From: Escherichia coli
GTDB lineage: Bacteria; Pseudomonadota; Gammaproteobacteria; Enterobacterales; Enterobacteriaceae
DNA length: 64,000 nt
Direction: 5' to 3' (one strand)
Assembly: GCF_029227855.1 (NCBI RefSeq)
Contig: NZ_CP074356.1
Below are positions 3,982 to 57,277 of the stretch, piece after piece. Within the stretch, counting starts at the first letter, position 1; the number at the start of each line of letters is the position of its first letter. A program made the translations under genes and the position numbers. The notes under the pieces are model-generated. The model made no database searches. It saw nothing but the letters and a program-made list of their open reading frames with translations, and was not told the origin of the DNA.

Positions 3982-4286
3982 GATTGTGCTCCTTTTGAAA
4001 GATGTCAGTAAAATTAACACACGTTGTGAATGTCGTGTGTCCGGTAATGCGTTTTTACGGCAATAATGCCTACTTGAAATTGTACATATTTGTACTACAC
4101 ACTTTTAAATAAAGCGCCAATGAAAACGTTAACTTGCAGAATATATTCTTCGCCAACATGCCATTAAGAAAACATCAAGTTCCCGGCTTGCCAATTTGTT
4201 AACGCCCATTATAGTTATTCTTGCCCTCACTAAAAATTTTCATCCGTAATTACCCCCAATAAAAATCCATTCTGGAGACGCTTAAG

Positions 4287-6263
4287 ATGCAGCTTAATCA
4301 TATCGTTAAAAGTCTGCTAATAACGGGATTATTCACCACCAGTTCTTTACCTCTCCTCGCGGCGGAAGCTCCTAAAGACGCCACCGCAGCCACGCAACAA
4401 GCAAACAATTTACTCTACAACCAGTTGCCGTTTGCCGATAACACTGACTTTACTGATGCCCATAAAGGTTTTATTGCCCCTATCCCTCAAGACGTGATTA
4501 AGGGCGAACAAGGGAATGTTATCTGGGATCCACAACATTACGCTTTTATCAAAGAAGGCGATAAAGCCCCTGATACGGTGAATCCGAGTTTATGGCGTCA
4601 GGCGCAACTGATAAATATCAGCGGGTTATTCGAAGTAACTGAAGGTGTCTATCAGATTCGCAATCTCGATCTATCAAATATGACCATCATTGAAGGCAAA
4701 GAGGGTATTACCGTCGTTGATCCCCTTGTTTCAGCAGAAACAGCCAAAGTGGGTATGGATCTCTATTACAAAAATCGCGGCAAAAAACCGGTAGTGGCGG
4801 TTATCTATACACACAGTCATGTCGATCACTACGGTGGTGTTCGTGGCGTAATTGATGAAGCTGACGTTAAATCAGGCAAAGTTAAAATCTATGCGCCAGC
4901 CGGATTTTTGGAGGAAGCCGTTTCCGAAAACATCATGGCTGGCAATGTTATGAGCCGACGAGCCAGTTATATGTATGGCAACTTATTGAAACCTGATGTT
5001 AAAGGCCAGGTGGGGGCTGGACTGGGAACGACTACTTCAGCAGGAACAGTCACGTTGATTGCTCCTACTAACTACATCACCAAAACCGGACAAAAAGAAA
5101 CTATTGACGGGTTGACTTATGATTTCCTGATGGCGCCAGGTTCTGAAGCGCCTTCTGAAATGCTGTGGTTTATTGAAGAAAAGAAACTGATCGAAACCGC
5201 TGAAGATGTCACGCACACCCTTCATAACACCTATTCGCTGCGTGGGGCTAAAATTCGCCAACCGCTGCCGTGGTCAAAATATATTAATGAAGCTCTCAAT
5301 TTGTGGGGTGATAAAGCCGAGATTATTCTCGCTCAACATCACTGGCCAACCTGGGGCAACGATAACGTGGTCAAACTGCTTAAAAGCCAGCGTGATTTGT
5401 ATCGTTACATCAATGATCAAACTCTGCGCATGGCTAATCAAGGGATGACCCGTGATGAAATTGCCGCAAACTTTAAACTGCCCTCTTCACTGGCTAACAC
5501 CTGGGCGAATCGCGGCTATTACGGTTCGGTAAGTCATGACGTGAAAGCAACTTACGTGCTTTATCTCGGCTGGTTTGATGGTAACCCCGCGACGCTTGAT
5601 GAACTGCCGCCAGAAGAAGGCGCAAAAAAATTCGTCGAGTATATGGGCGGTGCTGATGCCATTTTACAGAAAGCCAAACAGGATTATGACCAGGGTAATT
5701 TCCGCTGGGTTGCCCAAGTTGTTAGTAAGGTGGTGTTTGCCGATCCAAACAACCAGGCAGCGAGAGATCTGGAAGCTGATGCGCTTGAGCAGTTAGGCTA
5801 TCAGGCTGAATCTGGGCCGTGGCGTAATTTCTATCTCACTGGTGCACAGGAATTGCGTAATGGCGTACAAAAATTACCAACACCAAATACTGCCAGCCCA
5901 GACACCGTGCGTGCGATGACGCCGGAGATGTTCTTTGATTATCTTGCCGTCCATATTAATGGTGAGAAAGCGGCAGATGCCAAAACCGTGTTGAATTTCG
6001 ATTTTGGTGAAGATGGCGGCACCTATAAAGTGGAGCTTGAAAATGGTGTTCTCAATCATACCGCTGGTGTAGAGGCTTCGGATGCTGATGCCACTATCAC
6101 TCTGTCTCGTGATGTATTGAACAAAATTGTACTGAAAGAAGAGACGCTGAAAGAAGCCACGGCCAAAGGAGATGTCAAAATTACTGGCAATGAGGAAAAA
6201 CTCAACGAGCTGTTAGGTTATATGGATAATTTTGAATTTTGGTTCAATATAGTGACACCATAA
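4287..6263 (+). CDS. Secreted YjcS/SdsA1-like alkyl (aryl) sulfatase, metallo-beta-lactamase fold
   Basis: 658 aa; N-terminal signal peptide (LLITGLFTTSSLPLLAAEA); THSHVDHYGG metal-binding motif; RBS GGAGA upstream. Accessory relative to the K-12 gene order as remembered. Confidence 0.8.
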   Translation: MQLNHIVKSLLITGLFTTSSLPLLAAEAPKDATAATQQANNLLYNQLPFADNTDFTDAHKGFIAPIPQDVIKGEQGNVIWDPQHYAFIKEGDKAPDTVNPSLWRQAQLINISGLFEVTEGVYQIRNLDLSNMTIIEGKEGITVVDPLVSAETAKVGMDLYYKNRGKKPVVAVIYTHSHVDHYGGVRGVIDEADVKSGKVKIYAPAGFLEEAVSENIMAGNVMSRRASYMYGNLLKPDVKGQVGAGLGTTTSAGTVTLIAPTNYITKTGQKETIDGLTYDFLMAPGSEAPSEMLWFIEEKKLIETAEDVTHTLHNTYSLRGAKIRQPLPWSKYINEALNLWGDKAEIILAQHHWPTWGNDNVVKLLKSQRDLYRYINDQTLRMANQGMTRDEIAANFKLPSSLANTWANRGYYGSVSHDVKATYVLYLGWFDGNPATLDELPPEEGAKKFVEYMGGADAILQKAKQDYDQGNFRWVAQVVSKVVFADPNNQAARDLEADALEQLGYQAESGPWRNFYLTGAQELRNGVQKLPTPNTASPDTVRAMTPEMFFDYLAVHINGEKAADAKTVLNFDFGEDGGTYKVELENGVLNHTAGVEASDADATITLSRDVLNKIVLKEETLKEATAKGDVKITGNEEKLNELLGYMDNFEFWFNIVTP

Positions 6264-6275
6264 ATTTACTGCATA

Positions 6276-6301
6276 CCGGGCAGGTATCCTGCCCTTTTTT
6301 G
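6276..6301 (+). terminator. Rho-independent terminator after sulfatase gene
   Basis: GC stem gggcagg-tat-cctgccc followed by T-run (tttttt). Confidence 0.7.
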
Positions 6302-6309
6302 GTTAAAAA

Positions 6310-7407
6310 ATGGCTGAACGAAGAAAAACTCATCACTCATGGAAAACCCGCCGCAATATGGTTATTCGCGGCATGACGATTAGTTTGCCATGGTTTGCTT
6401 TTATCAATGTCAGTTTTGCATTGATAATTTTGCTGCGCCGTGTTCTGTTTAATGACCTTACTCCACCCTGGTTAAATGAAAAAAGCCTTATACATTCTAT
6501 TGATATATCTGCAACGGGTATTCTGCTGATTTGCAGTGGTTTACTACTCATCCCTCGGCAAAAAACATTACCTATCCAGGTGCTATTAGTTGCCCTGAGC
6601 CTGCTATGGTCATGGTGTAGTTATCACTTTATTGCGTACTGGACGCTGCAGTTTGCTTATCCACTATGTGTATTATTAATGCTTAGTGGCGTTGTCGCAA
6701 TTTATTTCCATACCCCATCATTGCTCGCATTTGTCATTCCCTTATGGTTCACCACTCCAATAGCGAGTCTTATGCTTAATCAACAGATCAATATTCATTT
6801 TGCTGTTGTATGGTGTATTTTTTCACTGGCGCTATATGGTGGGCGACTCATTTTGTTACGTTGGTTTGAAGAAGCATGGGTACAAAACAGTTATAACAAC
6901 CAGTTAATTAATCGCCTTGATGCATTAGCACATCGTGCTCCTTTAACTGGGATAGCAAACCGACGTGCAATGAACAGTATCTTACACGACACGATGGATA
7001 ACGGCGGGTCATTTGCTCTTATTATGCTGGATGTCGATTTTTTTAAACGTTACAACGACACTTACGGGCATCCTGCTGGGGATCGTTGTCTAATACAAGT
7101 TGCCGACGCTCTACAGCGTTCAACTCGCCAGTCGGAGGATGTTGTTGTCCGTTATGGTGGCGAAGAGTTTGCCATCATACTTTTTAATGCAACATTGCCG
7201 GAAGCAGAGACGGTAGCAGCCAGAGTGAAGCAAGAACTTAAACTGGCAGCTATCCCACATCAGGCATCTGCTGTTAATGCATTCGTTACGGTTAGTCAGG
7301 GGATTACCTGTTCTGCTCCCGCAAAAACGGCTGAACAAATTATTTCAGATGCCGACGCTGCGTTATACCGGGCGAAAGAAAGTGGGCGAAATCGATGGGC
7401 TTTATAA
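6310..7407 (+). CDS. Membrane-anchored diguanylate cyclase (GGDEF domain, intact GGEEF active site)
   Basis: 365-aa ORF; N-terminal half has multiple hydrophobic helices, C-terminal half has the RYGGEEF motif. Exact start uncertain (alternative ATG at 6358). Confidence 0.75.
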   Translation: MAERRKTHHSWKTRRNMVIRGMTISLPWFAFINVSFALIILLRRVLFNDLTPPWLNEKSLIHSIDISATGILLICSGLLLIPRQKTLPIQVLLVALSLLWSWCSYHFIAYWTLQFAYPLCVLLMLSGVVAIYFHTPSLLAFVIPLWFTTPIASLMLNQQINIHFAVVWCIFSLALYGGRLILLRWFEEAWVQNSYNNQLINRLDALAHRAPLTGIANRRAMNSILHDTMDNGGSFALIMLDVDFFKRYNDTYGHPAGDRCLIQVADALQRSTRQSEDVVVRYGGEEFAIILFNATLPEAETVAARVKQELKLAAIPHQASAVNAFVTVSQGITCSAPAKTAEQIISDADAALYRAKESGRNRWAL

Positions 7408-7480
7408 GCATTAGGGGACTGGACAGATTACGTCTCTCCTCGCTTAACAAGGGCTGACGGAGGGTAATAATTGTCTATAG

Positions 7481-8032
7481 CTATCTTCTTAGCGATGTCT
7501 TTCTGGTATCACATTGGGTCGGTGCAATTATTTTTCCTTTAATACCCATTATGTTAAGAAATTCAGAAACAGCTGTAATCTCATTGTTTTTTTCATTCGT
7601 CTTGATCTTCCAAGGAATCTGACTGTGCATTATTGAGAACACACTAATAACGTGAATCGCTCCCTTGCGACGACTCTTGTCATAAGAGTACCGGAGCGTT
7701 TTTCCATCAATTGCAATGACGTCTTTATCATCTGAAGAATGGCAGTCAAGCATCCAGTTAATAAAGCACTCATGAAATTTTTCAGGACTGATACAGGATA
7801 CAACTCTGGCAATGGTATCGTGAACAGGAATACCATTATCAAAATCACCATATTGCTTCAAAAAATCGAGATGTGTTTCCCCAAAATCCTCTATATCTTC
7901 CCAGCCTTCTGCACCCGAAATAATGGCACAAATAGTCAACAGTAGAATATCCGATAATTTATGTTCCACTTTCCAGGCTTGTCTGTAATCGGGGGTAATA
8001 GAAATATGTTCCATCAATTTTTTAAATTCCAT
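7481..8032 (-). pseudogene. Truncated H-repeat-associated (ISAs1-family) transposase, N-terminal 5' fragment
   Basis: 183-aa ORF about 85 percent identical over roughly 170 aa to the N-terminus of the intact H-rpt ORF at 14075..15211, then diverges and terminates; shared upstream flank as well. Confidence 0.8.
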
Positions 8033-8617
8033 TTTGTTCTCCTTAATTATGTAAGGAGTATTTGATCATGTATAAGCAATAAAAAACAGCTTTAGGTAAT
8101 GAGGAATATCTCAATTTTTAAACATAAAATGCGAATTATTTAGTACAAAAAAGCAGCGTTACGTGATCTTTCCGTGGATCGTCAAATTGTTCGAGAGAAA
8201 ATACCAACATGATGGATTTTACTGTAAAAGTAATGTCGTAGTTTAAAAACTCATCATCCGGTAAAGCCTTGTGGGGCGTGGGCTTTCATACTTTTACCCT
8301 GATGTCTGCTATACGCCGGACACCCTTTACGTAGCATTCGGAATTCACCCGTAAATTTATCACGGCGGTATCACGAAACCTCCGGTTCTGATGCCGCTTA
8401 GGACTAACGACACGTCAACACAGGTTCGGGTTTATTCATTTCACTGTATCTCATATAATCTGAGCACTCCCCCTGCGCTCGCTACTATGACTCTTTACCA
8501 CAGCAACCGGGGTTGTTTGGGATCGGCTTTCAACAGCAGATCCCGGTGGCTATTGCAAGTAAGTCTACTTTCCACATCAGTGTTACTGACACAGAAAATA
8601 ATGAGTTATGATCCTTG

Positions 8618-9103
8618 TCATATTTTTAATATAGCCCCATGAGCTATAGGATCAAAACCTTCTAACCATGAGGTGTTTTTATCGAATAATGCACCTGTTA
8701 TATTTATATCGCCATATCTATCACATAATAAATTAGCGCCACATAAGTCAGCACCAGAAAAATTTGAATCTTTAACGTCTGCATTGCAAAAGGTTGAATT
8801 AGTTAATATAGCACCCTCAAAGTTTGCACCTATTGACCTTGAATTACTAAAGTCACTTCCAGTGAAATCTGAGTTATTAAGAATAGCGTTCATCAGAGCC
8901 GCATTGCGAAAGACAGCATTTCTAGTTGATGTATGTTGAATCATTACATTTCTTAAATGGGAATTTTCAAATTTCGCCCCATCAAGACAATAACCATTGA
9001 GGATGGCACGATGTAGATCCATCCCGCTAAAATCATATCCAGCAAGAGTGGTACTATCTATATCAAGAAATTTATTGGTTATTAAAAACGCGATTCTTAT
9101 CAT
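8618..9103 (-). CDS. Pentapeptide-repeat protein, predicted Rhs immunity protein (positional equivalent of K-12 ydcD)
   Basis: 161 aa; about 20 consecutive A(D/N)(L/F)xx-type pentapeptide repeats ([15 protein letters not shown] ... [15 protein letters not shown]); start codon overlaps the rhs stop in ATGA arrangement; AT-rich. Confidence 0.8.
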
Positions 9104-12100
9104 CTATTCCCCCAATCATCTAACTCCGGAAAAATTTGGCTAAACGGATATAGTGGTGCCGATAATGGACGCGTACCTGGCCGCTCAGGAGGAAGTTTAT
9201 CACATAACAGACCCGCAACCATCCTGTGATTACCATTAACAATCACATTCCCATCCATATCAACCGGTGGTGCTCCACTACCATCTTCCAGCATTTGTAC
9301 GTAGTGAGCTACTACGGGTACTGAGACTTTTTGTTGTACTGTCAACAAGGGACTGTTGGCCACAACCATCCTGATGTTTTCAGGTGTCGCAGGTAAACAT
9401 TTAGTCTTCTCTTGACTAAAGGTATCATCCCACAATTTTGTTAAACCCATCACTGCCTGTTGTCTGTATTTATCCATGGGGTCAGCAATCAACCAAGATG
9501 GACCTGACTGCTCTATGGAATCTTCTCCGGAGAGACCCAACGGATCTATCTTAGTAGTTGGATTCAATGGATACTGATACAGGTTCCATGCACCTCTTAG
9601 CCCAATGGGATCCTGGGTGATATACCGCCCCTGCAACGGGTCATAGTACCGGTTGCGGTTATAGTACAGCCCCGACTCCTCATCATACTGCTGCCCCGGC
9701 AGACGGTACGGCTGTTGCAGTTGCTGCGCGCTGGTTTCGCCCAGCAGGTTTCCCCACTCGTCATACTCCCCCTGCCACGCCGTTTCCCCTACCGGGCTGA
9801 TGAGCGCCTGCGGCAGCCCCCGGTGGTCGCAGTGGTAAAGATGAAGTGTCCTCTCCGGGATGTATTCCGCCTCCATCTGGTTTTTCATCTGTTCCGCCGT
9901 CAGCCCGCACTGCTGAAGCCATGCCTCACTCTCCGCACTCACCGCACCCGCGCGCAGTTCCCGCTCCAGCCTCCCCAGCATCACCGACAGCTCCGCCGGT
10001 AGCGTCACCCCCGTGTCCTCCTGCAACACCTCCGCCAGACTCCGGTGCCGCGCCTTCGCCTGTTCACCATTCTCTGTTTCGATTCTGATGAGCGGCGTGA
10101 AGCTCCCCGGCTGGTATACCGTCTGGATACGCGTGGTGCCGGTCTGTACCGTCGTCAGCCTGTCACCGTCCCACCCGTACCAGGTCTCCTCCGGTTTACG
10201 CGACAGCGACATCCACCCCGTCAGGTCACGCTCCCGCCGCCACACCCGTTTCCCCGTCCGGCGGCCCAGCGGGTCATAGAGGTAGCGGCTCTCCACCTGT
10301 GGTTCGCCGTGCTGTATCCGCGTGTAGAACACCAGGCGGTGCTGGCTGTCGTAATGGTAGTGGTGGGTCCGCTCGTCGTGCATCCGGATAACCCCTTCCG
10401 GGATACGATCCGTCTTCTCCGCCAGCCTGCCGTATTCATCGTGGCGGTAGACATAGTGCGCATCCTCCGCGATGCGGTTATCCGGCCACGCCGTGAAGGT
10501 GCTGTCCGGGTGCAGTTCCGGGTCCGGCAGCCGGTTTCCTGCCGGGTCCGTCGCATACGGGATATCGATATCCAGGTTCGCCGCCGTGGTGTGAACGCCC
10601 GTCAGTCTTCCCGTGTCGCTGTAACGGTACTTCCGGCTCTCCTGCGGGCCGCTGATGCGCACCAGTTGCCCGTTATCGTTCCACGTATACTCACGGTCAA
10701 GCTGCGGAAGGTTCAGGTGCCTGCTCCGGAGCTGCCCTGTGAGGGTGTACGCCATGGCCTGTTCGTACCCCGCTGTACTGCCCGCCCCGCCGAAGCTGCG
10801 GGCCGTCTCACGGTGCAGCCGGTCCCGCGTGTACTCGACCAGCGGCGTTCCGCCCAGCTTCATCCCCGCAAGATAACCGCTGCCATACGTCAGCCACTCC
10901 ACCGGCGGCAGACCGTCCGGCTCCTGACGGGTCGCCAGCCCCTGTTCGCTGTAGACGTGCCTCGTCTCATGCTCCCACAGCATCTCCCCCGTCTCCTGGT
11001 TCTCCACCGTCTGCCGTTCGCCCGTCAGGCGGCCTTTATCGTCATAGCCGTAGTGGACCGCCACACGGTGGCCTTCGCTCAGGTGGCTGATTTCTGTCAG
11101 CCAGCCGTGGTCGTCATACTGCCACTGCTCCGCCGGGTCGCCGTTCACCGTCCGGTGCGTGATGCGCCCGGCGTCATCGTAGTACCACTGCGTGACCTGC
11201 CCCTCATCCTCGCTGCGGATGAGCTGCCCTGTGGCGCTGTACCGGTAACGCTGTGTCCTGCCGTCAAAGCCGCGCTGCTCCGTCAGCCTGTCCACCGGGT
11301 CATACCGGAACGTGGACTGGCTGCCGTTCTCGTTGGTCAGCACGGTGATGCGCCCGGCGGCGTCATACTCCATGCTGCGCGTCAGTCCGCCCTGCGTGGT
11401 GCTGACGGCCTTTCCCCACGCATCATACTGTGTCTCACTCCGGCTGCCGTTCGGGGCAATGATAGCGGTGAGGTCGCCTGCGGCGCTGTACTCATAACGG
11501 GTTTCACGTCCCTGCGCATCCTTCTGACTGACCAGTTGACCACGCGGGTTATAACTGCTGTAAGTGCTGATGCCTTCCTCCCGGTGAACCGCCGTCCTCT
11601 GACCGTACCGGTCGTATTCATACCGCGTCGTGTACCCTGAACAGTCCGTAAATGCCTGAAGCTGACCGTACCGGTTTCGCGTTATTCTCCGCCTCACCCC
11701 GGTTCCGTCTTCCACCGCACAGGGCAGGCCACTGCGGGAAGAATCATAAAACCAGCGCGTAATGTTACCGTTGCGCGAGACCTCTTCCGCCAGCCTGCCC
11801 TGACGGTCATATTTCCGGCTGCGGCGCAGCCCGTCCGGGTACGTCACTGACGTCAGTTGCAACTGGTTGTTGTAACCATACCGTACCGTCCTGCCGTCCG
11901 GCAGTATCACTGAAGTCAGCTTTCCCGACGCCATATGCAGCCGGTACTCCGTCCGCCGTCCCGCCGCATCCGTCTGCGCCTTCAGCCTCCCCGCCTCATC
12001 ATACTCGCTGCGGGTGATGCTCCCGTCCCCATGCTCCTTCTTCACCACCCGCTTCAGGCCGCCCTCGCCCTCCGTGTACAGCACCTCCCGCCGGTTCAGG

Positions 12101-13311
12101 CTGTCCGTGATGGTCACGCGGTCCTGCCCGTACTCAAAGCGGTAGTCCAGCCCCTCCGGGTTGACCTGCTCCGTCACCCGACCGGTATCATCATACCGGT
12201 AGCGGCTCTCCGGCCTCCCCGCATAATGGTGCGCCACCATCCGCCCGGCGTGCTCCGCATCATAAGTAAACCCGCGCACCTGCGTCCCGCTGCGGTCATA
12301 CACCGCCCGCAGTTCTCCGCTGGCCGTGTACGTGTAGCGCGCCAGCGGCGCAGTCGGCAGTTCATCCAGGTATGCCAGGTCGTGTGTCAGCCATACCGCC
12401 TCCAGCCGGATACCGTTATCGGCACCGTACTCTGTACCGGTGGGCAGCGTGTCGGGGAAAACCTGAGAAGAGGAAACAGAACGGGGACTGGCCGGAGAAG
12501 ATAAAGAAGAGGCGCGCTGTTTACGGAAGGCTTTCGCCCGCTGCGCCTGTGTGGTCAGCGCCAGATGAAAACGGCGGCCCGCGCCGTCCGTCACCCCCGT
12601 CACCGCGCCCGCCGCTTCCCCCTCTGCCGCCCGGTGGAAGGCCAGCGTCCGCCCGAAGCTGTCCACCACGCCCGTCAGCACCCGGTATGCGGGCGGCTCC
12701 GGCGGCAGCACCTCGTCCGCCTCCGGCACCCGCTCCGGCCAGCCGAGTATCCACCACGGCCCCTGAAGGCTGTTTGTCGCCAGGTACACATGCGGGCTTA
12801 AGCGGAGACTCTCCGGCAGCACCTGCCAGAGCGCGCTTAGCGGCTGCGAACTGTGCTGCTCCGCCACCCCGCCCCTTGCCAGCCAGAACGACTCGCTGCG
12901 GCTGTAGCTTATCTCGCCGGGAAACAGCGGCTCAAAGTGAATGCTCCTGCCGCCACTGTCGTTGAGTATCAGTTCCCGCTCATGAACCTGTAAGCGGATA
13001 TCGAAGGGCGCTTTCCAGCCGGGACCAAACACCCCCACCGGCGCGGGTGTTCTGGTCCGGTAGCTGCTGTAGGCGCGGGAAAGAATAAACGGCAACGGGC
13101 CGGGCAGCGCAAGATCCGTCTCGCCCGGCAGCACCTTCGCACCCAGTAGCGGGTTCACCGGGTTACCCTTCTGCTCCTCCACCGGGCTGTTGGGACACAC
13201 CGAGCAGGCCACTCCCGTCGGCGCACCTATCAGCACCCCCGCTGAACCCTGCACAATATCCAGTCCCTTGCGGGTCATATCGCCCTGTCGCGCCGCCGGT
13301 TTTCCGCTCAT
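9100..13311 (-). CDS. Rhs polymorphic toxin, full length (PAAR-like N-terminus, YD-repeat core, variable C-terminal tip with ParB-like motif)
   Basis: 1403 aa; N-terminus [11 protein letters not shown]; long GC-rich YD-repeat core; core-end DPxGL motif (..DPIGL..KIDPLGL) followed by an AT-rich roughly 143-aa tip (about 9100..9531). Confidence 0.9.
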
Positions 13312-13731
13312 GGTTTATTCCTTAAATTATTTATGGTTTTATTCTGAGTGCAATCCATACTGATTCATAACCAGTGAATAAGATTTCCCCGAATAATCTA
13401 TATAAATTAGCGAAGTCCTCTTCACTAATTAACCGTAAAATCCCGTACCAATGAAATATAAAAATAACCACCCACACAAATTTATTGCAAATATTATTCA
13501 TTATTGTATATACATCATTCACTGAACGTTCTCAAACTGCATACCTTAGAACCATCAATTAAAGCCACAACAAAAAAATCGATTACTTTATGTCGCATGA
13601 CAAATATGAATTACATATTAATCAACCTTAAAAACAATCATCTCTTATAATTAACAGCATACCATGAGAAACACAAAATCAATTTACCATGCATACCAGG
13701 AGCATAATTAACCTCTCACCGCAGGGCGAAA

Positions 13732-14097
13732 TCATGAAGGCCCGCAGCCAGCAAGGATTAGAGAAAGGTATTCATTCTTACGTCCTGCCCGCTTTTGCTT
13801 GCGTTTAATACCCGCTTTAAAGCTATTCTCTGCGGTCAGTAAATTCATCGCGATATGTCGACAAACTGCCAGATTTTCTCCCGCTTCTCCACGAACAATC
13901 TGGCATTCATCTTCCCGCATCCCCATATCAAGTCGCCAGTGCAGTTGATTTTCTACCGACCAGTGTGCTCGTGTTGCTTCCAGGAGTTCTTTCGCCGTAA
14001 GCGTCACCGAACTTATGTAGTAGCGAAGAATACACTTCTCTGATTTCACCGCTGTTTCTCCTTCCAGGGCAAGATTACGAAAGCCCGCTCCCCGCAA
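13732..14097 (-). pseudogene. H-repeat (ISAs1-family) transposase C-terminal fragment, diverged copy
   Basis: 121-aa ORF whose C-terminal 95 aa align to the C-terminus of the intact H-rpt protein (HWxVENxLHWRLD motif). Confidence 0.65.
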
Positions 14098-15211
14098 GGA
14101 CTGACGCCAGATAGTTTCTGTCCATGGCTGCTTTTCGCATCTTACGTCTTAACCCTGCCTTGAATACCTTATCATTCGTTAAAATATTAATAGCGATGTG
14201 CCGTATCCCTGAAAATAATTCTGCGGCGTTTCCTCTTCCTATTTTGCAGTCGTCTTCATTCATTACCACGTCCAGACGCCAGTGCAGCTTATTCTCCACG
14301 TGCCAGTGGTTTCGGATTGCTGTGGCGAACTTCTCTGCGGTTAAATCAGCAGAACTGATATAATATCTGACCGTCATTTCTGGCTCTTTCTTTTGTTCTG
14401 CTATTATTGACCGAAAGGAGACTGCCACGCATAATTTCTTCAGTCCTTTCCATTCAAACATTAAATCAATAAGTTCATCAGGGACATCACAAACAATGTG
14501 AAGACGGATTTCTTCTCTGCCGTGACTCTTTTCACTAATTGCGTAACTGTCATGCTCTGGATTATTTAATTCTTTCAGTGGGAATTTTTCCTCAAAGGCT
14601 TTATTTAGCCGCCCCTGGTTTCCTTTTACAGCGAATAAATAATCACCTCCCTGTTTTTGTATCTTCTCTGCAATATCTTTCTGGCAACCCATCGCATCAG
14701 TTGTGATGATTTTTCCTTTAATATCCAGCATGTTAAGAAGTTCAGGGATAGCTGTAATTTCATTTGATTTCTCATCCGTCCTGATCTGTCCGATGACCAG
14801 ACTGTGCATTGTTGAGAACGCACTAATGACATGAATCGCTCCCTTGCGGCGACTCTTGTCATAAGGATGCCGGAGTGTTTTTCCATCAATTGCGATGACG
14901 TCTTTATCAGCTGAAGAATGGCAGTCACGCATCCAGTTAATAAAGCACTCGTGAAATTTTGCAGGACTGATACAGGATACAACTCTGGCAATGGTATCGT
15001 GAACAGGAATACCATTTTCAAAATCACCATATTGCTTCAAAAAATCGAGATGTGTTTCCCCAAAATCCTCTATATCTTCCCAGCATTCTGCACCAAAAAT
15101 AACGGCACAAATAGTCAACAGTAGAATATCCGACAATTTATGTTCCACTTTCCAGGCTTGTCTGTAATCGGGGATAATAGAAATATGTTCCATCAATTTT
15201 TTAAGTTCCAT
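14075..15211 (-). CDS. H-repeat-associated protein / ISAs1-family transposase (intact)
   Basis: 378 aa, recognised as E. coli H-rpt (YdcC/YhhI-like) protein. Confidence 0.9.
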
Positions 15212-15487
15212 TTTGTTCTCCTTAATTATGTAAGGAGTATTTGATCATGTATACGCAATAAAAAACAGCTTTAGGTAATAAGGAATATCTCAATTTTTAA
15301 ACATAAAATGCGAATTATTTAGTACAAAAAGTGAACTTCTGATGATCTTTCCCTGCCCATTGGGTTCATTAAGATCAAGAATAATGGGAATATGCTCAAG
15401 AAGACTTTGAATGTTCACCAGACGTCCTTTTCTAATATATTTAATTATTTGGCGATTAAATTTTAATCAAATCAACAAGGTAAAACC

Positions 15488-15525
15488 AAGATTAAAGTTG
15501 TGATGATAATCACAACTTTAATGAT
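15488..15525 (-). terminator. Hairpin downstream of Rhs copy-2 immunity gene (putative terminator)
   Basis: 14-bp perfect stem attaaagttgtgat/atcacaactttaat with a 4-nt loop; a short U-run follows on the minus strand. Confidence 0.45.
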
Positions 15526-15557
15526 CTTCCCCTGATTCCTCCAGTCCTTTTATTTGG

Positions 15558-15932
15558 TTACTCTAATGGTTTTATTAATTGTAAATTTTTAAATGTCATG
15601 CTTAATAAGCCATCAGAAAAATAAAGAAAAAATTTATATATCCTTTTGTTTTTTAATTTCTTTATATACCCATTACTTATATTACCTGACTTGTGATTAT
15701 CGATTAACTCAGCAGAATCCATAGCGAACACTAAATCATCTACATCAGAAAATTCAACTATCATTTTTTCCCTAATGTTCTCATTTTTATAAATGTCAAT
15801 AAATAACGTCATGTTAAAATGAGATTCTTTGAATGTCGTTTTTACTTCTAACAAAACCCCATCATGCCAGTCAATTGAACTCACAATGTCAAAATCGCTC
15901 ATTATATAATCTCCATTATCCGTTTTAATCAT
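15558..15932 (-). CDS. Predicted immunity protein for Rhs copy-2 toxin (hypothetical, AT-rich)
   Basis: Start chosen at MIKTDNGDY so that ATG overlaps the toxin stop (ATGA coupling); very AT-rich; no recognisable domain. Longer alternative start at 15965. Confidence 0.6.
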
Positions 15933-18900
15933 GGAGTAACAACGTTTGCAGGTATTGACCACCAAAGAGGTGGTGCAAGTGAAGGTATAAATCGAATCAC
16001 TCTATATATAACATACCCTGCGCCAATTGTAGCACCAGTTGCAAGAGCCGCATCAGTAGTTGATAGCCCAGAGGTTTTGCATGACAGATCTTTACTTGGT
16101 TCTGGCTCGAAACCATATTTTTTTGCACATTTCTTAATGCTATTTGGTGCTGATGAGTAATCCTCACCATGGGACATACCTCCAAATTCCCCCATTACAC
16201 CACTCCCATTTTTACACTCCCAATGCAAATGTCTTCCGTCACCAACAGCATCGCCATCTATTCGGATTCGACAACCTTTACCACAGTCCTTCCATTTTCC
16301 TGAAGTATGAGCTAATCCCAATGGATCAATCCATTGCACAGGATTGTTCATAACATAACTGTACGGGTTTATTCCCCCCGCCAGCCCTATCGGGTCCTGG
16401 ATGATATACCGCCCCTGCAACGGATCGTAGTACCGGTGACGGTTATAATACAGCCCCGACTCCTCATCGTGTTGCTGCCCTGGCAGACGGTACGGCTGGT
16501 GCAGGTGATGCGGGTTTTCCTCATTCAGCAGGTTCCCCACTCATCATACTCCCCGCTCCACGCCGTATTGCCGTCTTCGCTGATGAGCGCCAGCGGCAGG
16601 CCCCGGTGGTCGCAGTGGTAAAGATGAACTTTTCGCGCCGGTGTGTATTCCGGCTCCACCTGTCTGGCCAGTTGCTCCACCGTCAGCCCGCACTGCGCAA
16701 GCCACGCCCGGCTTTCGTTACTCACGCGGTCTGCCCGGATTTCTCCCTCCAGCCTGTCCAGCAGCCGCACCAGTTCAGCCGGGAACACCACACCGTGCCC
16801 GTCCTCACTCCCTTCCGACTGTAACTTCTCCGCCAGGCTGCGGCGCTGCGCTTTCTCCCGTTCGCCGTTCTCTGTTTCGATGCGGATGAGTGGCGTGAAG
16901 CTTCCCGGCTCGTATACCGTCTGGATACGTGTGGTGTCAGTCTGCACCGTCGTCAGCCTGTCGCCGTCCCACCCGTACCATGTCTCCTCCGGTTTACGCG
17001 ACAGCGACATCCACCCCGTCAGGTCACGCTCCCGCCGCCATACCCGTTTCGCCATTCGCCGTCCCAGCGGGTCGTAGAGGTAGCGGCTCTCGACCAGTGG
17101 CTCGCCATGCTGTATCCGCGTGTAGAACACCAGGCGGTGCTGGCTGTCGTAGTGGTAGTGGTGGGTCCGCTCGTCGTCCGTCCGTATCACACCCGCCGGG
17201 ATGCGGTCCGTCTTCTCTGTCAGCCTGCCGTATTCATCGTGGCGGTAGACATAGTGCGCATCCTCCGCGATGCGGTTATCCGGCCACGCCGTGAGTGTAC
17301 TGTCCGGGTGCAGCTCCGGGTCCGGCAGCCGGTTGCCCGCCGGGTCCGTGGCATACGGGATGCGGATGTCCAGGTCCGGTGCGAGGGTGCGTACACTCGC
17401 CAGCCTGCCCGTGGCACTGTAGCCGTATTCCCGCGTCTGTCGCGGGCCGCTGATGCGCACAAGGTCGCCGTTGTCATTCCACCCGTAGTCACGGTCATAC
17501 ACCAGGCTGTTCAGGTGCTGGCTCTGTAACTGGCCTGCAGGGGTGTATGTGCTGGTCAGTTCGTATGCGGCATTACTGCCTGCCATGCTGCCAAAGCTGC
17601 GCACCGTCTCCCGGTGCAGCCTGTCCCGCGTATACTCGACCCGCGGCGTCCCGCCCAGCTTCATTCCCGCCAGGTAACCGCTGCCATAGGTCAGCCACTC
17701 CACCGGCGGCAGGCTGTCCGGCGTGACGCGGTTTGCCAGCCCCTGTTCGTTGTATGCCTGTTTCGTCTCATGCTGCCACAGCAGTTCCCCCGTCTCCGGG
17801 TTCTTCACCGTCTGGCGCTCACTGGTCAGACGGCCTTTATCGTCATAGCCGTAGTGGACCGCCACACGGTGGCCTTCACTGGTATGGCTGAGGGTGGTTA
17901 ACCACCCGTGCTCATCATACTGCCACTGCTCTGCCGGGTCGCCGTTCACCGTCCGGTGCGTGATGCGGTCTGCTTCATCGTAGTACCACTGCGTGACCTG
18001 CCCCTCATCCTCGCTGCGGATGAGCTGCCCTGTGGCGCTGTACCGGTAACGCTGTGTCCTGCCATCAAAGCCGCGCTGCTCCGTCAGGCGGTCCAGCACA
18101 TCGTAGGTAAATTCACTCCGGCTGCCGTTCTCGTTGGTCAGCGTGGTGACACGTCCTGCCGCGTCATACTCCATACTGCGCGTCAGCCCGCCCTGCGTGG
18201 TGCTGACCGCTTTTCCCCACGCATCGTACTGTGTCTCGCTCCGGTTGCCGTCCGGGGTGATAACGGCAGTCAGGTCGCCTGCGGCGTTGTACTCATACTG
18301 CGTTTCACGGCCCTGTGCGTCTTTCACCGAGGTTAACCGGCCACGGTTGTCATAGCGGCGGTAACGGCTGATACCTTCCTCGCGGTGGACCGCCGTCATC
18401 TGACCAAAGCGGTCGTATTCATAGCGGGTCTGGTAGCCCGAGCAGTCGGTGAACGCCAGCAACTGACCGTAGCGGCTCCAGGTCATCTGCCGGGTGCTGC
18501 CCGTCGCATCCATTGTCGTCGCCGGTAACTCACTGTACGCGTCATCGTAGCGGTAGCGTACTGTCTCCCCGCTGCGCGATGTCTCCGTTACCAGCCTGCC
18601 CGGTTCATCATATGCCCGGCGGCTCTCCAGCCCGTCCGGGGACACCACTGCCGTCACCTGGTTCCCGTCGTTATAGTAAAATTTCGTCTCCCGCCCGTCC
18701 GGTGTGGTGATGTCCGTGATATCGCCTGACACCACATTCAGACCGTACTCTGTCCGCCGTCCCGCCGCGTCCGTCTGCGCCGTAAGCCTTCCTGCCGCGT
18801 CATACCCACTGTGCGTGGCGCTGCCGTCCGCCAGTTCTTTTTTCACCACCCGCCTCAGCCCGGCCCCGCCTTCTGTATGCAGCACCTCACGCCGGTTCAG

Positions 18901-20088
18901 GCTGTCCGTGACGGTGATGCGGTCCTGCTCATACTGGTAGCGGTAACTCAGGCCTGCCGGGTTCAGCTGCTCCACCACCCGCCCCGCATCGTCGTAGCGG
19001 TAGCGCATCTCCGGCCTTCCCGCGTAACGGTGCGCCACCATCCGGCCCGGGTGCTGCGCGTCATACGTGAAAGCGCGCACCTGCGTATTGCTGCGGTCAT
19101 ATACCGCCAGCAGTTCACCGGCTTCCGTATACGTGTACCGCGCCAGTGGCGCACCGGGCAGATTCTCCGGGTATGCCGGGTCATGCATCAGCCACACCGC
19201 TGAAAGACGGATGCCCCTGTCGGGGCCGTATTCCGTACCGGGCAGTGTGTCGGGGAACGCTGAGGCTGAGAGAGGGCGGGAACGGTCAGAAGAAGATAGC
19301 GAAGAGGTGCGGGCCTCTTCCGCCCGCTGCGCCTGCGTGGTCAGCACCAGACGGAACTTCCGCCCGGCACCGTCCGTCACGCCGGTGATTTCCCCGGCCA
19401 GGTCACCGGCGGCCTCACGCCGGTACGTCAGCGTCTGCCCGAAGCGGTCCGCCAGCCCGGTAAGCACCCGGTACGGCGGCAGCGGCGCTGGCAGTACGTC
19501 CTCAGTGCCCGGCACCCGCTCTGACCACCCCAGTATCCACCACGGTCCCTGTGCGCTGTTGGTCGCCAGGTAAAGATGCGGGCTTAACCGGATATCCGGC
19601 GGCAGCGACGGCCACAGCCGTGCCAGCGTGTGGCCGTCCGGCTGCGCTGCCTTACCACCGCGAACCAGCCACATTGACTCGCTGCGGCTGTACACCGCCT
19701 CCCCCGGCAGCAGCGGCTCAAAGTGAATGCTCCGCCCGCCGTTGTCGTTGAGTATCAGTCCGTCATCACGTATCTGTAAGCGGATATCAGAAGGCGCTTT
19801 CCAGCCGGGGCCAAAAATCCCCACCGGCGCAGGCGTCTTCGTCCGGTAGCTGCTGTAGGTGCGGGAGAGAATGAACGGCAGCGGGCCGGGCAGCGCAAGG
19901 TCCGTCTCGCCGGGCAGCACCTTCGCCCCCAGCAGCGGATTTACCGGGTTGCCCGAAGTCATCCCGCCCGGACACACCGAGCACGCCACGCCGGTGGACG
20001 CGCCAATTCTTACACCTGCCGAACCCTGGACAATGGGACCGCCATACTGAGTCATATCTCCCTGACGCGCCGCTGGTTTTCCGCTCAT
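15929..20088 (-). pseudogene. Rhs polymorphic toxin copy 2, interrupted by a 1-nt frameshift between core (16525..20088) and DPxGL/toxin tip (15929..16540)
   Basis: 1187-aa core ORF ends ..EYDEWGTC while a separate 203-aa ORF carries the core end ([38 protein letters not shown]) and a Cys/His-rich tip. Rhs copy 1 has tttcccca where copy 2 has ttcccca (around 16531..16539). Confidence 0.8.
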
Positions 20089-20154
20089 GATTCAATTCCT
20101 TCTTCTGTTTATTTTTAATGCTTGTTTGTTACTGAATACCGAACAGGTACGGGA

Positions 20155-22263
20155 TCAGTACTCTCTCATATCCGGCGTATCCTGCTTTTCATCAGGGGTC
20201 TTCGGTGGGGATTTCGAGGCTGCACAGTTCCAGTTAATCAACAGTGAGTCACCATTAACCTGCTCCTTACCCTGCAAATGAATTTTTGTGCCGTTGAGAA
20301 AAATTTGTCCGTCCTTAGTCAGCACCAGCCTTGCCTTACCACAGCAGAGTTCCAGATGCTCACCGGCGGAGTAAATCGCGGTCTGCCCGGTATCATCCTT
20401 TTTCGTTTTACCAACGGTGAAGGTAACGTTATTTCCGACTTTGACGTCATAACCCAGCCCGACCATCAACGACTTATGCAAACCGATCTGCGAGGACTGC
20501 ATCAGGGCCACCGAGGTGTTCATAATGCCACCTACCGTCGTCTGATACGCCACGCCCACGGTCAGCGCACGAACAAGTCCAATCGTTTCCACCTGAACAG
20601 AGCCCACTTTAATGATCTGGTTACTGCCCACCGTCTCTATCTGGTTAACGCCCACCGTCTGTATCTGATTGTTGGTAACCGCAATCACCTGATTGTTGCC
20701 GATGGTCTCAGCATGGCTGTTTATCACATCCGTGGTTCGGTTATTCAGCACCTCAGTGTTCATGTTCTTCTGCGCGTGGATGTAGACCTGTTCTTTCCCT
20801 GTCGCATCGTCAAACTTCAGTTCATTAAACCCGCTGCCCTTATAGGTTTTCGAACGAATGGTCATCTGCGTCTTTGTTCCCGGCAGGCTGCCGGGGGTGC
20901 GGTTTTCCTGGTGGTAGGTACGCCCCATAATAATCGGCTGGTCCGGATCGCCGTTGAGGAAGTCCACAATGACTTCCTGACCCACACGCGGTATCGCCAG
21001 GTTGCCAAAGCCGGTGCCTGCCCACGCCTGTGCCACACGGATCCAGCATGAACTGTCCTGGTTTGACGGGTTATAGCGGTCCCAGTTAAATTTCACCCGC
21101 ACGCGGCCATGTTCATCACAGAAGATTTCTTCTCCTGCCGGTCCCGTCACGACGGCGCTCTGCGGGCCGTCCACCAGCGGTTTCAGCAACGGCTGTGGCC
21201 GCCATGTTCTGTCTGCCGGTATTACCGCAAAGTGGTTATTCAGCGTGGTACCTGAACCCCTGCGTCCCGGCACCGCCTGCGGCTGCTCGCCGTGCAGTTC
21301 ACTTGCCACCACCTGCCATTCCCGGTTCAGGTTCGCCTGCGGATGCCCCGTCAGCGCAATTCGCCGTCCCGGCCATATCTCCGGCGAACGGCTTGTTCCG
21401 CGCGCCACTTCTGCGTTGTTTCGCCAGCCATCCATCTGCCAGCAGGCAAAGTTCTGCCCGTGGGCACCCTTGAAACGTCCGGGGTAGTCATACACTTCAT
21501 ACTGTGTGCGCTGGTAATCCTGGTGCTGGCCTTCCTGATCAAAACGCCCTGCCCAGCCGGGTCGTTTAAAGGTGTAGTCTTTGGTCACCACGGAAGATGG
21601 GCGGATTTGTGCGCTGTAGCGGAACTGGCTGATGCATAGGGTGCTCACCTCGGTACGGGTGTTCGGATTCCAGGGGATCTCAAAGGACTCCGGCAGATAA
21701 CGCACGGTGTCGCACAGGACCAGGCTCTGGTCGGTACTTTTTTGCGCGTGCTCCTCATAAAAGAAGATGCCTTCCTCCGCCGCCATCCGGCACAGGAAAT
21801 CGTAATCGGTTTCGCCGTACTGGACACAAAACTCACGGGAAGGATGCGGCTCGCTGAACAGCGGACTCCACTCGGTCACCCCGTTTTCTTTCAGGATCGT
21901 CGCGAGTATGCTTTCGATGTCCTCATTCTGGAAGATACGGAAGTTCTGGCGCAGCCCTGTGCGCCACAGCGGTGGGCACACCTTCATGCTGTACAGCATC
22001 TGGTTTTTGTCGTTCTCCCCCAGTTCAAACCAGGTCACCACACCTTTCACCCGGCGCTGTACGTCATCGCCCTGCCATACCGTCAGGTAGGCCATTTTGT
22101 CCAGCACCTGCGCAAATTCAAGGGAGAGAAACTGCTGGCTGACCAGAGAGAGATCGAGGGAAAAGAGCGAAGAGAGTGACTGGTTCAGATGAAAGGAGAC
22201 CACCGCAAACGCGTCCGGTGGCAGGCCGTCCACTTCCAGCGTGAAACGTAATCCGGTTGACAT
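20155..22263 (-). CDS. vgrG: Type VI secretion spike protein VgrG
   Basis: Start taken at MSTGLRFTLEVDG with GGAGG RBS (702 aa); recognised VgrG gp27/gp5-like sequence including repetitive beta-helix segment (VGVNQIETVGSNQIIKVGSVQVETIG); 66 nt upstream of the Rhs copy-2 start. Confidence 0.9.
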   Translation of the reverse strand: MSTGLRFTLEVDGLPPDAFAVVSFHLNQSLSSLFSLDLSLVSQQFLSLEFAQVLDKMAYLTVWQGDDVQRRVKGVVTWFELGENDKNQMLYSMKVCPPLWRTGLRQNFRIFQNEDIESILATILKENGVTEWSPLFSEPHPSREFCVQYGETDYDFLCRMAAEEGIFFYEEHAQKSTDQSLVLCDTVRYLPESFEIPWNPNTRTEVSTLCISQFRYSAQIRPSSVVTKDYTFKRPGWAGRFDQEGQHQDYQRTQYEVYDYPGRFKGAHGQNFACWQMDGWRNNAEVARGTSRSPEIWPGRRIALTGHPQANLNREWQVVASELHGEQPQAVPGRRGSGTTLNNHFAVIPADRTWRPQPLLKPLVDGPQSAVVTGPAGEEIFCDEHGRVRVKFNWDRYNPSNQDSSCWIRVAQAWAGTGFGNLAIPRVGQEVIVDFLNGDPDQPIIMGRTYHQENRTPGSLPGTKTQMTIRSKTYKGSGFNELKFDDATGKEQVYIHAQKNMNTEVLNNRTTDVINSHAETIGNNQVIAVTNNQIQTVGVNQIETVGSNQIIKVGSVQVETIGLVRALTVGVAYQTTVGGIMNTSVALMQSSQIGLHKSLMVGLGYDVKVGNNVTFTVGKTKKDDTGQTAIYSAGEHLELCCGKARLVLTKDGQIFLNGTKIHLQGKEQVNGDSLLINWNCAASKSPPKTPDEKQDTPDMREY

Positions 22264-49604: not shown

Positions 49605-50320
49605 GGTTTTTCAAATGCGCCTATAAGGCTCTCTTACCAGCCGCGCCCTAACAGGCGCACACGATCTGACATTTGCATCCAACTTCGTTACTTACGGCCC
49701 GTAAACGGGCTGCCCGGATAGGGAATCGATAACTGCTCTCCCATTTTATCCTCTTCAAGCTGGTGCTTTGTGTAATCCTGTATCTTCGCCGTGTTCTTAC
49801 CCACTGTATCGACGTAGTACCCTCTGCACCAGAACTCCCTGTTCCTGTATTTGAATTTCAAATCACCAAACTGCTCGTAAAGCATCAGACTGCTTTTCCC
49901 TTTCAGATATCCCATAAACCCGGATACGCTCATTTTAGGCGGGATCTCCACAAGCATATGGATATGATCTGCACAGCATTCAGCTTCCAGAATCCGTACG
50001 CTTTTCCACTCACACAGCTTTCTCAAAATACTGCCTATTGCTCTACGCTTCTCTCTGTAGAACACCTGTCTTCGGTATTTTGGCGCAAAAACTATGTGAT
50101 ATTTACAGTTCCATCGGGTGTGCGCTAAGCTCTTTTCGTTCCCCATTGGGACCCCCTTTTGATTTCTTGTTTGACACTTGCAGTTGCCAGACCGCAAGGT
50201 GTTTTAACAAATCAAAAGGGGTTTTAATAACAGGCTCAAAGCTGAAAGCTTTCCGGAACCCCCAGCCTAGCTGGGGGTTTTCTGTGCACAAAAAAGCCGC
50301 CTGGCTGGCGGCTTAGGAAA
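49605..50320 (-). mobile_element. IS200 insertion sequence (IS200/IS605 family)
   Basis: About 0.71 kb element with 459-bp tnpA, perfect palindrome near the tnpA-proximal end (aacccccagcctagctgggggtt, about 50260..50283) and a second hairpin; boundaries approximate. Confidence 0.75.
49688..50146 (-). CDS. tnpA: IS200 Y1 (HUH) transposase TnpA
   Basis: 152 aa starting MGNEKSLAHTRWNCKYHIVFAPKYRR; catalytic HxH (DHIHMLVEIPP) and Tyr region; near-identical to IS200 TnpA as remembered. Confidence 0.9.
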   Translation of the reverse strand: MGNEKSLAHTRWNCKYHIVFAPKYRRQVFYREKRRAIGSILRKLCEWKSVRILEAECCADHIHMLVEIPPKMSVSGFMGYLKGKSSLMLYEQFGDLKFKYRNREFWCRGYYVDTVGKNTAKIQDYTKHQLEEDKMGEQLSIPYPGSPFTGRK

Positions 50321-56994: not shown

Positions 56995-57069
56995 TTTCTG
57001 TTTTCAGGCTAACCGGGAATCAGAAAGACGAAGGCCCCGACCGATATTTCTATCAACCGAGGCCAACGA

Positions 57070-57075: not shown

Positions 57076-57277
<202 letters not shown>

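Follow-up and report, generated by a model that had tools for sequence, protein, structure and literature searches.

A two-module vgrG-rhs island at the rhsE site of Escherichia coli, with a predicted ParB/Srx-fold tip and a pentapeptide-repeat partner

Genes and features of the island

We investigated a locus of vgrG and rhs genes, candidates for the spike and effector proteins of a type VI secretion system (T6SS), in Escherichia coli (RefSeq assembly GCF_029227855.1, contig NZ_CP074356.1). The window, by which we mean the whole stretch of DNA analysed, is 64 kb long, and every vgrG and rhs gene of the island lies on its minus strand, in a span of 8618-22263 from first to last codon. These are exactly the coordinates given by an earlier sequence-only reading, whose description of a vgrG-linked Rhs island with two different toxin/immunity pairs also stands. 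The RefSeq annotation of E. coli JNEC-KY178 (NZ_AP045174.1) and a comparison with K-12 place the island between yncH and pptA, which is the rhsE site of K-12. It is of a kind of E. coli accessory island that is already known, and its exact sequence is in RefSeq with an essentially correct annotation.

Read 5' to 3' along the minus strand, yncG and yncH are followed by vgrG, a 66-nt spacer, the first rhs gene (rhs1), a small open reading frame (ORF) and a hairpin, and then by an intact ISAs1 element, a divergent ISAs1 fragment, about 420 nt of AT-rich sequence, rhs2 and an ORF for a pentapeptide-repeat protein (Table 1). Downstream of the latter lie a spacer with a group II intron fragment and an N-terminal ISAs1 fragment (8032 to 7481), beyond which GGDEF and sulfatase genes, and then pptA, yddH and nhoA, are found on the opposite strand. 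The island thus consists of two separate modules: module A, of vgrG, rhs1 and its small ORF, and module B, of rhs2 and the pentapeptide ORF, bounded by ISAs1 sequences. One contiguous vgrG-rhs-rhs array, as had been proposed, is not what we found, since ISAs1 elements intervene, the rhs genes are of two lineages and no separate vgrG accompanies rhs2. The intact ISAs1 element, both ISAs1 fragments and the AT-rich gap are additions to the earlier account.

Table 1. Coordinates of the features of the island, in minus-strand order
Feature	Position	Strand	Description
vgrG	20155-22263	-	702 aa; TIGR03361, E 4.7e-188; predicted alternative T6SS spike protein
vgrG-rhs1 spacer	20089-20154	-	exactly 66 nt; rhs1 ATG at 20088
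rhs1, whole	15929-20088	-	split into two reading frames
rhs1, 5' frame	16525-20088	-	1187 aa; PAAR-like N-terminus, DUF6531 plug, YD-repeat shell; premature TGA
rhs1, frameshift site	16535-16538	-	G4 run, one base short; TGGGGGAAC in intact relatives, TGGGGAAC here
rhs1, 3' frame	15929-16540	-	203 aa, GTG start at 16540; end of the Rhs-associated core and CT1 (rhs1 tip)
Small ORF after rhs1	15558-15932	-	124 aa from the ATGA-overlapping ATG; in RefSeq 114 aa from 15902 (30 nt further in)
Hairpin	15491-15522	-	perfect 14-bp stem and T-rich tail, just after the small ORF; from pattern scan
Intact ISAs1 (H-rpt) transposase gene	14075-15211	-	NF033564, E 2.6e-121; counterpart of K-12 ydcC
ISAs1 C-terminal fragment, divergent	13732-14097	-	NF033564 positions 246-314 of 314, E 3.4e-26
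AT-rich non-coding stretch	13312-13731	-	upstream of rhs2; 34-40% GC; ribosome-binding site AAGGA before the ATG
rhs2	9100-13311	-	intact, 1403 aa; PAAR-like N-terminus, DUF6531 plug, YD shell, both Asp motifs
CT2 (rhs2 tip)	9103-9531	-	residues 1261-1403; C-terminal toxin tip
Pentapeptide-repeat gene	8618-9103	-	161 aa; ATGA overlap with the rhs2 stop; RefSeq 'pentapeptide repeat-containing protein'
Group II intron fragment	8442-8550	-	Rfam group-II-D1D4-2, 48 bits against a gathering score of 36
ISAs1 N-terminal fragment	7481-8032	-	NF033564 positions 1-142 of 314; far edge of the rhs2 module

Both rhs genes have GC-rich cores (59-68% GC) and AT-rich tips (about 44% GC), and each is followed by a small ORF (27-35% GC) that overlaps its stop codon in an ATGA, at 9100-9103 for rhs2 and at 15929-15932 for rhs1. 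This base composition and these overlaps agree with the sequence-only reading, as do the common N-terminal start of the two Rhs proteins (11 identical residues) and the lack of relationship between their tips, which are not alignable beyond a DPLGL motif. The cores had been called near-identical, which the alignment does not bear out; their identity is 77.9% over 3764 nt, and 73.7% in amino acids, and the similarity begins just 13 nt before the ATG.

Both rhs genes had also been taken to be full-length. This is the case for rhs2 (1403 residues); rhs1 is split into frames of 1187 and 203 residues by a missing G. The rhs1 5' frame matches positions 1-1189 of the 1261 positions of the NF041261 RHS_core profile, against which the two Rhs proteins score 2552 and 2505 bits (curated cut-off 2000), and Pfam detects the DUF6531 plug (E 1.6e-18) and RHS repeats. 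The end of the rhs1 core (…DPIGL…IDPLGL; TIGR03696, E 1.3e-27) is in the 3' frame, out of frame with the shell. The break precedes both catalytic Asp motifs as well as the toxin, with some 50 codons between it and the cleavage site, and adding one G to the run gives a 1386-aa ORF without a stop. An uninterrupted frame, with the cleavage motif (PxxxxDPxGL) in frame, is found in rhs2, whose Rhs-associated core (TIGR03696, E 1.4e-22) reads …TQDPIGL…IDPLGL followed by SGED, and not in rhs1. As sequenced, the predicted product of rhs1 is an unsealed shell that has no toxin.

We compared this site across genomes using a 321-nt probe for the rhs1 core-tip junction. The junction is contiguous in 50 genomes, 49 of which match over 322 nt with one extra base, and JNEC-KY178 alone has the short form with four G. 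Thus, the loss of the G is recent and lineage-specific. RefSeq likewise flags rhs1 of JNEC-KY178 as frameshifted. This genome is collinear with the window across all 64 kb at 99.98% identity, differs from it by four substitutions and one indel in the 27.5 kb around the island, and is the sole other genome with this exact configuration. The indel concerns rhs2: at 12871 JNEC-KY178 lacks one G between two C-runs, and its rhs2 is annotated as frameshifted where the window copy is intact. This may be either real decay or an assembly error. Programmed frameshifting at the rhs1 G-run was considered and rejected, as we found nothing in its support and 49 genomes carry a plain in-frame version.

The tip of rhs1, CT1 (about 127 aa), has a hydrophobic tail of the Tox-WTIP type, with motifs RVIR and WWSIP. 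The match to Pfam Tox-WTIP (PF15654), with E 4.8e-13, is confined to the latter half of the model (positions 40-79 of 79), and the approximately 50 residues between DPLGL and this tail match no family. The small ORF after rhs1, presumably the immunity gene for CT1, has no match in NCBIfam or Pfam. Some 370 genomes were found to carry CT1 together with this ORF. In most of them the pair forms an orphan module, about 1.1 kb behind a main rhs gene with a different tip, an arrangement consistent with the established view that recombination joins orphan tips to a core. The hairpin that follows is a possible terminator of the vgrG-rhs1 unit, with the qualification that the count of such sites is not above that of shuffled controls. 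Our pattern scan gave 19 promoter matches against 14.9 expected from shuffled sequence, and 16 terminator matches against 14.8 expected; since neither is better than the controls, we draw no operon boundaries from it.

The spike gene, the rhs lineages and the T6SS

The product of vgrG scores 626 bits against TIGR03361 (cut-off 186), and contains the Pfam domains Phage_GPD, Phage_base_V and Gp5_trimer_C, that is, the gp27-like hub, the gp5 OB-fold and the beta-helix. A ribosome-binding site, GGAGG, precedes the ATG at 22263, and in view of this start context the 737-aa, TTG-started ORF of the mechanical ORF list is an over-extension. The distance of 66 nt to a following rhs gene on the same strand had been given exactly (rhs1 ATG at 20088), and neither the sequence nor the ORF list of this spacer contains an adaptor, chaperone or separate PAAR gene. 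No T6SS structural genes other than vgrG occur within the 64-kb window, again as previously stated, and the island had on that ground been read as an auxiliary locus that depends on a T6SS elsewhere.

We identified such a system in JNEC-KY178, used here as a near-identical proxy for the genome of the window. A complete T6SS cluster is present at aspV/yafT, with hcp, tssB, tssC, tssE, tssF, tssG, tagH, tssJ, tssK, tssL (annotated as IcmH/DotU), tssH, vasI, tssA, tssM, vasL, a second hcp and its own vgrG-rhs-immunity-ISAs1 set. The island VgrG and the aspV-cluster VgrG are 92% identical overall, and this identity is unevenly distributed, with 498 of the first 500 residues identical (99.6%) and about 75% identity over the last 200. 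The pair (20155-22263 in the window; 11283-13424 of the cluster locus L005 in JNEC-KY178) is therefore a mosaic, which suggests that recombination or gene conversion keeps the hub uniform between the paralogues. It is also the pattern expected if the island VgrG is an alternative spike for the aspV T6SS, with a common hub and needle base and a different cargo-binding end. The auxiliary-island reading is upheld because the aspV VgrG matches at residues 1-500 and diverges at the cargo end; of the evidence here, this protein comparison, made with the near-identical genome, speaks most strongly for an island that would serve the aspV machine. A vgrG of the island type is found in 2996 of 5426 complete E. 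coli genomes.

The two rhs genes are differently related to this cluster. In nucleotide identity, the core of rhs1 is at 94.1% to K-12 rhsD, 94.6% to rhsE and 76.6% to rhsA, by which rhs1 is assigned to the RhsD/E lineage. The core of rhs2 is at 72-77% to K-12 rhsA and rhsD, 80.8% to the rhsE remnant and 89.9% to the Rhs gene of the aspV cluster; by this measure, rhs2 groups with the Rhs lineage encoded within the aspV T6SS cluster, and falls outside both K-12 Rhs subfamilies. Over its first 40 residues, Rhs2 has one difference from the aspV-cluster Rhs, and the cores of these two proteins are 88.7% identical. The Rhs proteins have a single PAAR-type unit (KPAARQGD…GSAGVxIG) in about 45 residues, and a PDB sequence search with residues 1-46 gave no match.

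A recent duplication as the origin of the two cores is ruled out by their 78% identity and their different nearest relatives. They nevertheless share exact identity blocks of 89, 74 and 59 nt, the longest at 17975-18063 in rhs1 and 11174-11262 in rhs2. These blocks should be enough for RecA-mediated deletion, a possible outcome of which is that the 3' end and tip of rhs2 come to stand directly behind vgrG, with the frameshift removed.

Alignment with K-12 clarifies the history of module A. The sequence-only reading had stated that the K-12 site has just a 5'-truncated rhsE, ydcD and H-rpt genes, and the alignment confirms this. K-12 matches the window as far as position 22331, which is 68 nt short of the start codon of vgrG, and the match is taken up again at 17901, within the core of rhs1. 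K-12 rhsE thus looks like the remainder after a 4.4-kb deletion of vgrG and the 5' 2.2 kb of an rhs1-type gene. K-12 also lacks window positions 4070-14064, which carry rhs2, the pentapeptide gene, and the sulfatase and GGDEF genes, and its ydcC element abuts the pptA flank. This segment cannot be called ancestral: of 5426 complete E. coli genomes, 143 have the rhs2 tip/immunity module (at least 99% identical) and 438 the sulfatase/GGDEF segment, as against the 2996 with a vgrG of this type. The idea of a fuller, ancestral-type array accordingly survives for the vgrG-rhs1 half, of which K-12 looks like a deletion derivative, and is not supported for the rhs2 half.

Two further features of the JNEC-KY178 chromosome were noted in a separate region (L004 34432-50000). 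Lateral-flagellar (Flag-2) genes adjoin dinB, and a retron-like RNA-directed DNA polymerase gene is located beside an AbiE pair, near the tRNA-Thr that adjoins proA.

The rhs2 tip, its partner gene and the flanking sequence

No Pfam, NCBIfam or PDB sequence match was obtained for the tip of rhs2, CT2, the best Pfam ParB model being ddrB-ParB at E 0.36. Its predicted structure is a confident ParB/Srx fold in a compact domain of about 100 residues, with a conserved G-N/H-H-R loop at the place where ParB/Srx proteins bind phosphate. An exhaustive search gave 329 cluster representatives as relatives of CT2; a word-indexed protein search had given four only, and full-length Rhs proteins probably cluster by their cores, hiding the tips. 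The domain ends five or fewer residues from the C-terminus in all 49 full-length domain matches, and a DPxGL motif lies upstream of it in 18 of these. The proteins that carry it vary in size, from short fragments up to very large ones of 1500-2400 aa. We conclude from the structural model that CT2 is probably a minimal ParB/Srx-fold tip, near in kind to Tox-ParB, and that existing sequence models miss it.

The ORF that overlaps the end of rhs2 is matched by 16 NCBIfam pentapeptide models (best E 2.2e-14), all below their curated equivalog cut-offs. We examined eight genomic contexts of CT2 relatives, and identified a pentapeptide-type ORF directly after the toxin in five of them, the window included, with one further weak case. 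Toxin and partner are, respectively, 64% and 45% identical to those of the window in one context (L008), 45% and 38% in a second (L009), and 41% and 27% in a third (L016; partner E 4e-18), and the weak case (L010) has a weakly similar repeat protein after the CT2 relative. In a further locus (L015, about 9660-10150), an uncalled pentapeptide ORF begins at the stop codon of a 2388-aa SpvB/TcdB-type toxin with a CT2-like tip. Partner genes of this type are, then, sometimes overlooked by gene callers.

A decayed copy of the pentapeptide gene is present at the rhsA/yibA locus of E. coli AR_0067 (L013, 5036-5401). The identity is 95% across 320 nt, of which 35 nt are the very end of the toxin tip, and the neighbours of the copy are NTF2-fold and other orphan immunity genes behind rhsA. 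Partial matches of this kind occur in the 143 genomes with the full module and in 132 others. On this comparative evidence, which is good, the pentapeptide ORF is presumed to encode the cognate immunity protein of CT2. By analogy with Qnr and MfpA, this protein may act by DNA mimicry.

Upstream of rhs2, the interval 13312-13731 contains no vgrG remnant or adaptor gene, so that any promoter of rhs2 would have to lie within it. ISAs1 sequences lie on both sides of the module. The element homologous to the intact ISAs1 copy spans about 14064-15355, with 96.7% nucleotide identity to the K-12 ydcC region. The fragment on the upstream side of rhs2 has no nucleotide similarity to this copy, and the N-terminal fragment at the far edge is similar to it over 7482-8151 (91.2%, to 14660-15330). 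We considered whether these fragments could be the halves of one copy split by insertion of the module, and rejected this because the C-terminal piece is upstream and the N-terminal piece downstream; the idea is also countered by the lack of nucleotide similarity between the upstream piece and the other copies. The group II intron fragment is isolated, in an unannotated spacer (8160-8617) between the pentapeptide gene and the ISAs1 fragment; this 458-nt spacer is present at about 100% identity, again unannotated, in 143 E. coli genomes.

Beyond the island, alkyl/aryl-sulfatase and GGDEF-domain genes (4287-7407, plus strand) stand between it and pptA, at a site where K-12 lacks them, and one of the five differences between the window and JNEC-KY178, at 6355, falls inside the GGDEF gene. 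Elsewhere in the window, Rfam matches were found to STnc490 (50156-50279, minus strand), beside an IS200C copy between rimL and ydcH, to the sok antitoxin RNA of hokB (56982-57133, plus strand) and to the small RNA RydC (57693-57756, plus strand). All three are ordinary features of the chromosomal region.

Function of the island and known systems

Set beside its gene identities and lineages, the frameshift, its position, the T6SS of the sister genome, the predicted fold of the tip and the conserved adjacency of toxin and pentapeptide genes, the island is probably an accessory cargo locus, with two modules at yncH-pptA, for a T6SS encoded elsewhere in the chromosome. As sequenced, only one of its pairs can act as a weapon, because the toxin gene in rhs1 is frameshifted.

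The loading, secretion, toxicity, target and immunity of the Rhs2 system can be sketched from homology to solved T6SS Rhs effectors, Tse5 among them. The PAAR-like N-terminus of Rhs2 would dock on the tip of a VgrG trimer, either that of the island or the near-identical one of the cluster. The YD-repeat shell would enclose CT2, and the two Asp motifs would release the tip by cleavage after DPLGL. When the aspV T6SS fires, spike and cargo would be brought into a neighbouring cell, where the ParB/Srx-fold tip may attack a nucleotide or DNA substrate. Sister cells would be shielded by the pentapeptide-repeat protein, plausibly through a DNA-like occupation of the toxin's binding surface.

Four observations weigh against this explanation. 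The pattern scan called no promoter-like site in 13312-13731. The Pfam PAAR_motif model matches the two Rhs N-termini weakly, at E 0.14 and 0.89. In two of the eight contexts (L017 and L018), the gene downstream of the CT2 relative is unrelated. Finally, the island may be decaying, since in JNEC-KY178, the sole other genome of the same configuration, rhs2 is frameshifted as well.

The last point leads to the rival that survives best, one that we consider improbable without being negligible: that the island is a silent, decaying remnant from which neither Rhs protein is delivered, with selection, if any, maintaining the immunity genes against attack by other E. coli with the same tips. The damage to the rhs genes in the two genomes speaks for it, as do the ISAs1 pieces and the group II intron fragment throughout the island, the absence of a vgrG and of a detected promoter for rhs2, the K-12 locus as a case of decay by deletion, and the occurrence in other strains of orphaned or decayed immunity genes of this type. 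It has to be set against an intact rhs2 ORF of 4.2 kb in the window, with vgrG and both small ORFs also intact, against the conservation of the rhs2 tip/immunity module at 99% or more in 143 genomes, and against a complete T6SS in the sister genome with a near-identical VgrG core.

It is unlikely, as a second rival, that the frameshift in rhs1 is a homopolymer sequencing error and that both Rhs toxins are functional. The change is one G lost from a G5 run, the same core-tip junction is found with the additional base in 49 other genomes, and the lone indel between the window and JNEC-KY178 also adjoins homopolymer runs. Yet the short form is shared by two assemblies between which there are five differences in 27.5 kb, and RefSeq annotates the JNEC-KY178 gene as frameshifted.

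We give a similarly low probability to a third rival, which is compatible with delivery by the aspV T6SS. Here, the tip-immunity pairs would act mainly inside the producer, as internally transcribed modules resembling toxin-antitoxin systems, and the 203-aa, GTG-started ORF of rhs1 could still be made. This ORF (GTG at 16540) retains the cleavage motif, the tip and the immunity gene after the frameshift, and internal promoters driving Rhs tips have been shown in Salmonella and reported upstream of E. coli Rhs tips (PMC7043789). Our pattern scan provides no promoter support for such transcription here. Finally, a single contiguous ancestral vgrG-rhs-rhs array, with a duplication as the source of near-identical cores and one upstream vgrG for both genes, would account for the same strand, the same N-terminal motif and the exact identity blocks of up to 89 nt, and is very improbable given cores of 78% nucleotide identity and different lineage, the ISAs1 elements and hairpin between the rhs genes, and the absence of rhs2 and its flank from most E. 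coli genomes that have the vgrG-rhs part.

The island as a whole is of little significance. Accessory vgrG-Rhs islands, the swapping of Rhs tips and the association with H-rpt/ISAs1 elements are textbook features of E. coli. It illustrates the origin of the K-12 rhsE remnant in a deletion, the way in which alternative spikes with a common core and a different cargo end may serve one T6SS, and the speed at which such loci decay, with a single-base frameshift in one Rhs gene here and in both in JNEC-KY178. The exception is the toxin-immunity pair of rhs2, CT2 and its pentapeptide partner, which is the only part of the island with research value. We tentatively raise the possibility, which we would not yet call likely, that the two form an undescribed family, with a ParB/Srx toxin of about 100 residues at the end of Rhs, SpvB/TcdB-type and other polymorphic toxins from many bacteria, and a DNA-mimic pentapeptide beta-helix as its usual immunity protein, after the manner of Qnr and MfpA for gyrase. 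If they are a true toxin-immunity pair, pentapeptide-repeat proteins would gain a defined role in inter-bacterial conflict, and a compact ParB/Srx-fold enzyme would join the list of T6SS toxins.

Among known systems, the K-12 RhsE element (rhsE'-ydcD-yncI-ydcC) is at the same site, and is matched by the rhs1 core (94.6% in nucleotides to the rhsE remainder) and by the ISAs1 element (96.7% to ydcC). It differs in having another tip and another immunity gene, ydcD. An rhsE gene behind vgrG2 is described in enterohaemorrhagic E. coli (PMC7216683). E. coli vgrG-Rhs-CT islands, and 'neighbourless' Rhs genes related to the Rhs of T6SS2, were described by Ma et al. 2017, as reported in PMC6730261. 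On that report, module A resembles the former in its vgrG, PAAR-type Rhs, polymorphic tip and small immunity ORF, and module B resembles the latter as a T6SS2-Rhs-related gene. Module A differs from the vgrG-Rhs-CT islands in the lack of an eagR/DUF1795 chaperone gene and in its frameshifted toxin gene. Neither tip of the island is named among the Rhs-CT effectors that PMC6730261 tabulates under its labels CT1, CT3 and CT5, or lists with putative activities (CT3-CT8).

The closest solved structure is that of Pseudomonas aeruginosa Tse5 (PDB 8cp6, E 1.4e-118), and Photorhabdus Rhs1 and other shells are also homologous. The shell chain of Tse5 starts with PVNP, which aligns with residue 51 of Rhs2. 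In Tse5, an N-terminal fragment of 47 residues is PAAR-like and needed for secretion, two Asp residues release the tip, and the N-terminus is largely unresolved in the cryo-electron microscopy map, residues 1-29 being missing (PMC10684867). The likeness extends to a T6SS Rhs effector beside vgrG with a DUF6531 plug, a short N-terminal fragment and a two-Asp C-terminal self-cleavage site. The tip of Tse5 is a pore-former and differs from the E. coli tips, and for the E. coli proteins cleavage and VgrG docking would be expected by homology.

For the tips themselves, Tox-WTIP proteins are described with the motifs RxxR and Wx[ST]IP and with membrane helices (PMC3482391). CT1 is alike in RxxR, Wx[ST]IP and a hydrophobic helix, and matches half of the model (PF15654), whereas the product of the ORF that follows it seems to be soluble, an uncommon property in immunity against a membrane toxin. 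CT2 resembles Tox-ParB (Zhang et al. 2012, PMC3482391) as a polymorphic-toxin C-terminal tip with a predicted ParB/Srx fold. It differs in its pentapeptide-repeat partner, those of Tox-ParB being Imm20, Imm27 and SuFu (PMC3482391). Rhs tips with a ParB motif are also reported from Pectobacterium and Dickeya (bioRxiv 10.1101/2025.05.08.652813).

The pentapeptide ORF belongs to the same repeat family as Qnr and MfpA, with weak NCBIfam matches that are far below the cut-offs, so that it is no Qnr or MfpA orthologue. Qnr and MfpA are pentapeptide-repeat DNA mimics that protect gyrase. Among Rhs systems, YjbI-like pentapeptide genes are found beside GH-E Rhs tips (PMC5714182), and Tsi6a is reported as a pentapeptide-like immunity protein for a Stenotrophomonas Rhs tip, Tse6 (bioRxiv 10.64898/2026.07.13.738213). 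The pentapeptide ORF of the island is alike in position to both YjbI-like genes and Tsi6a, directly after the Rhs tip.

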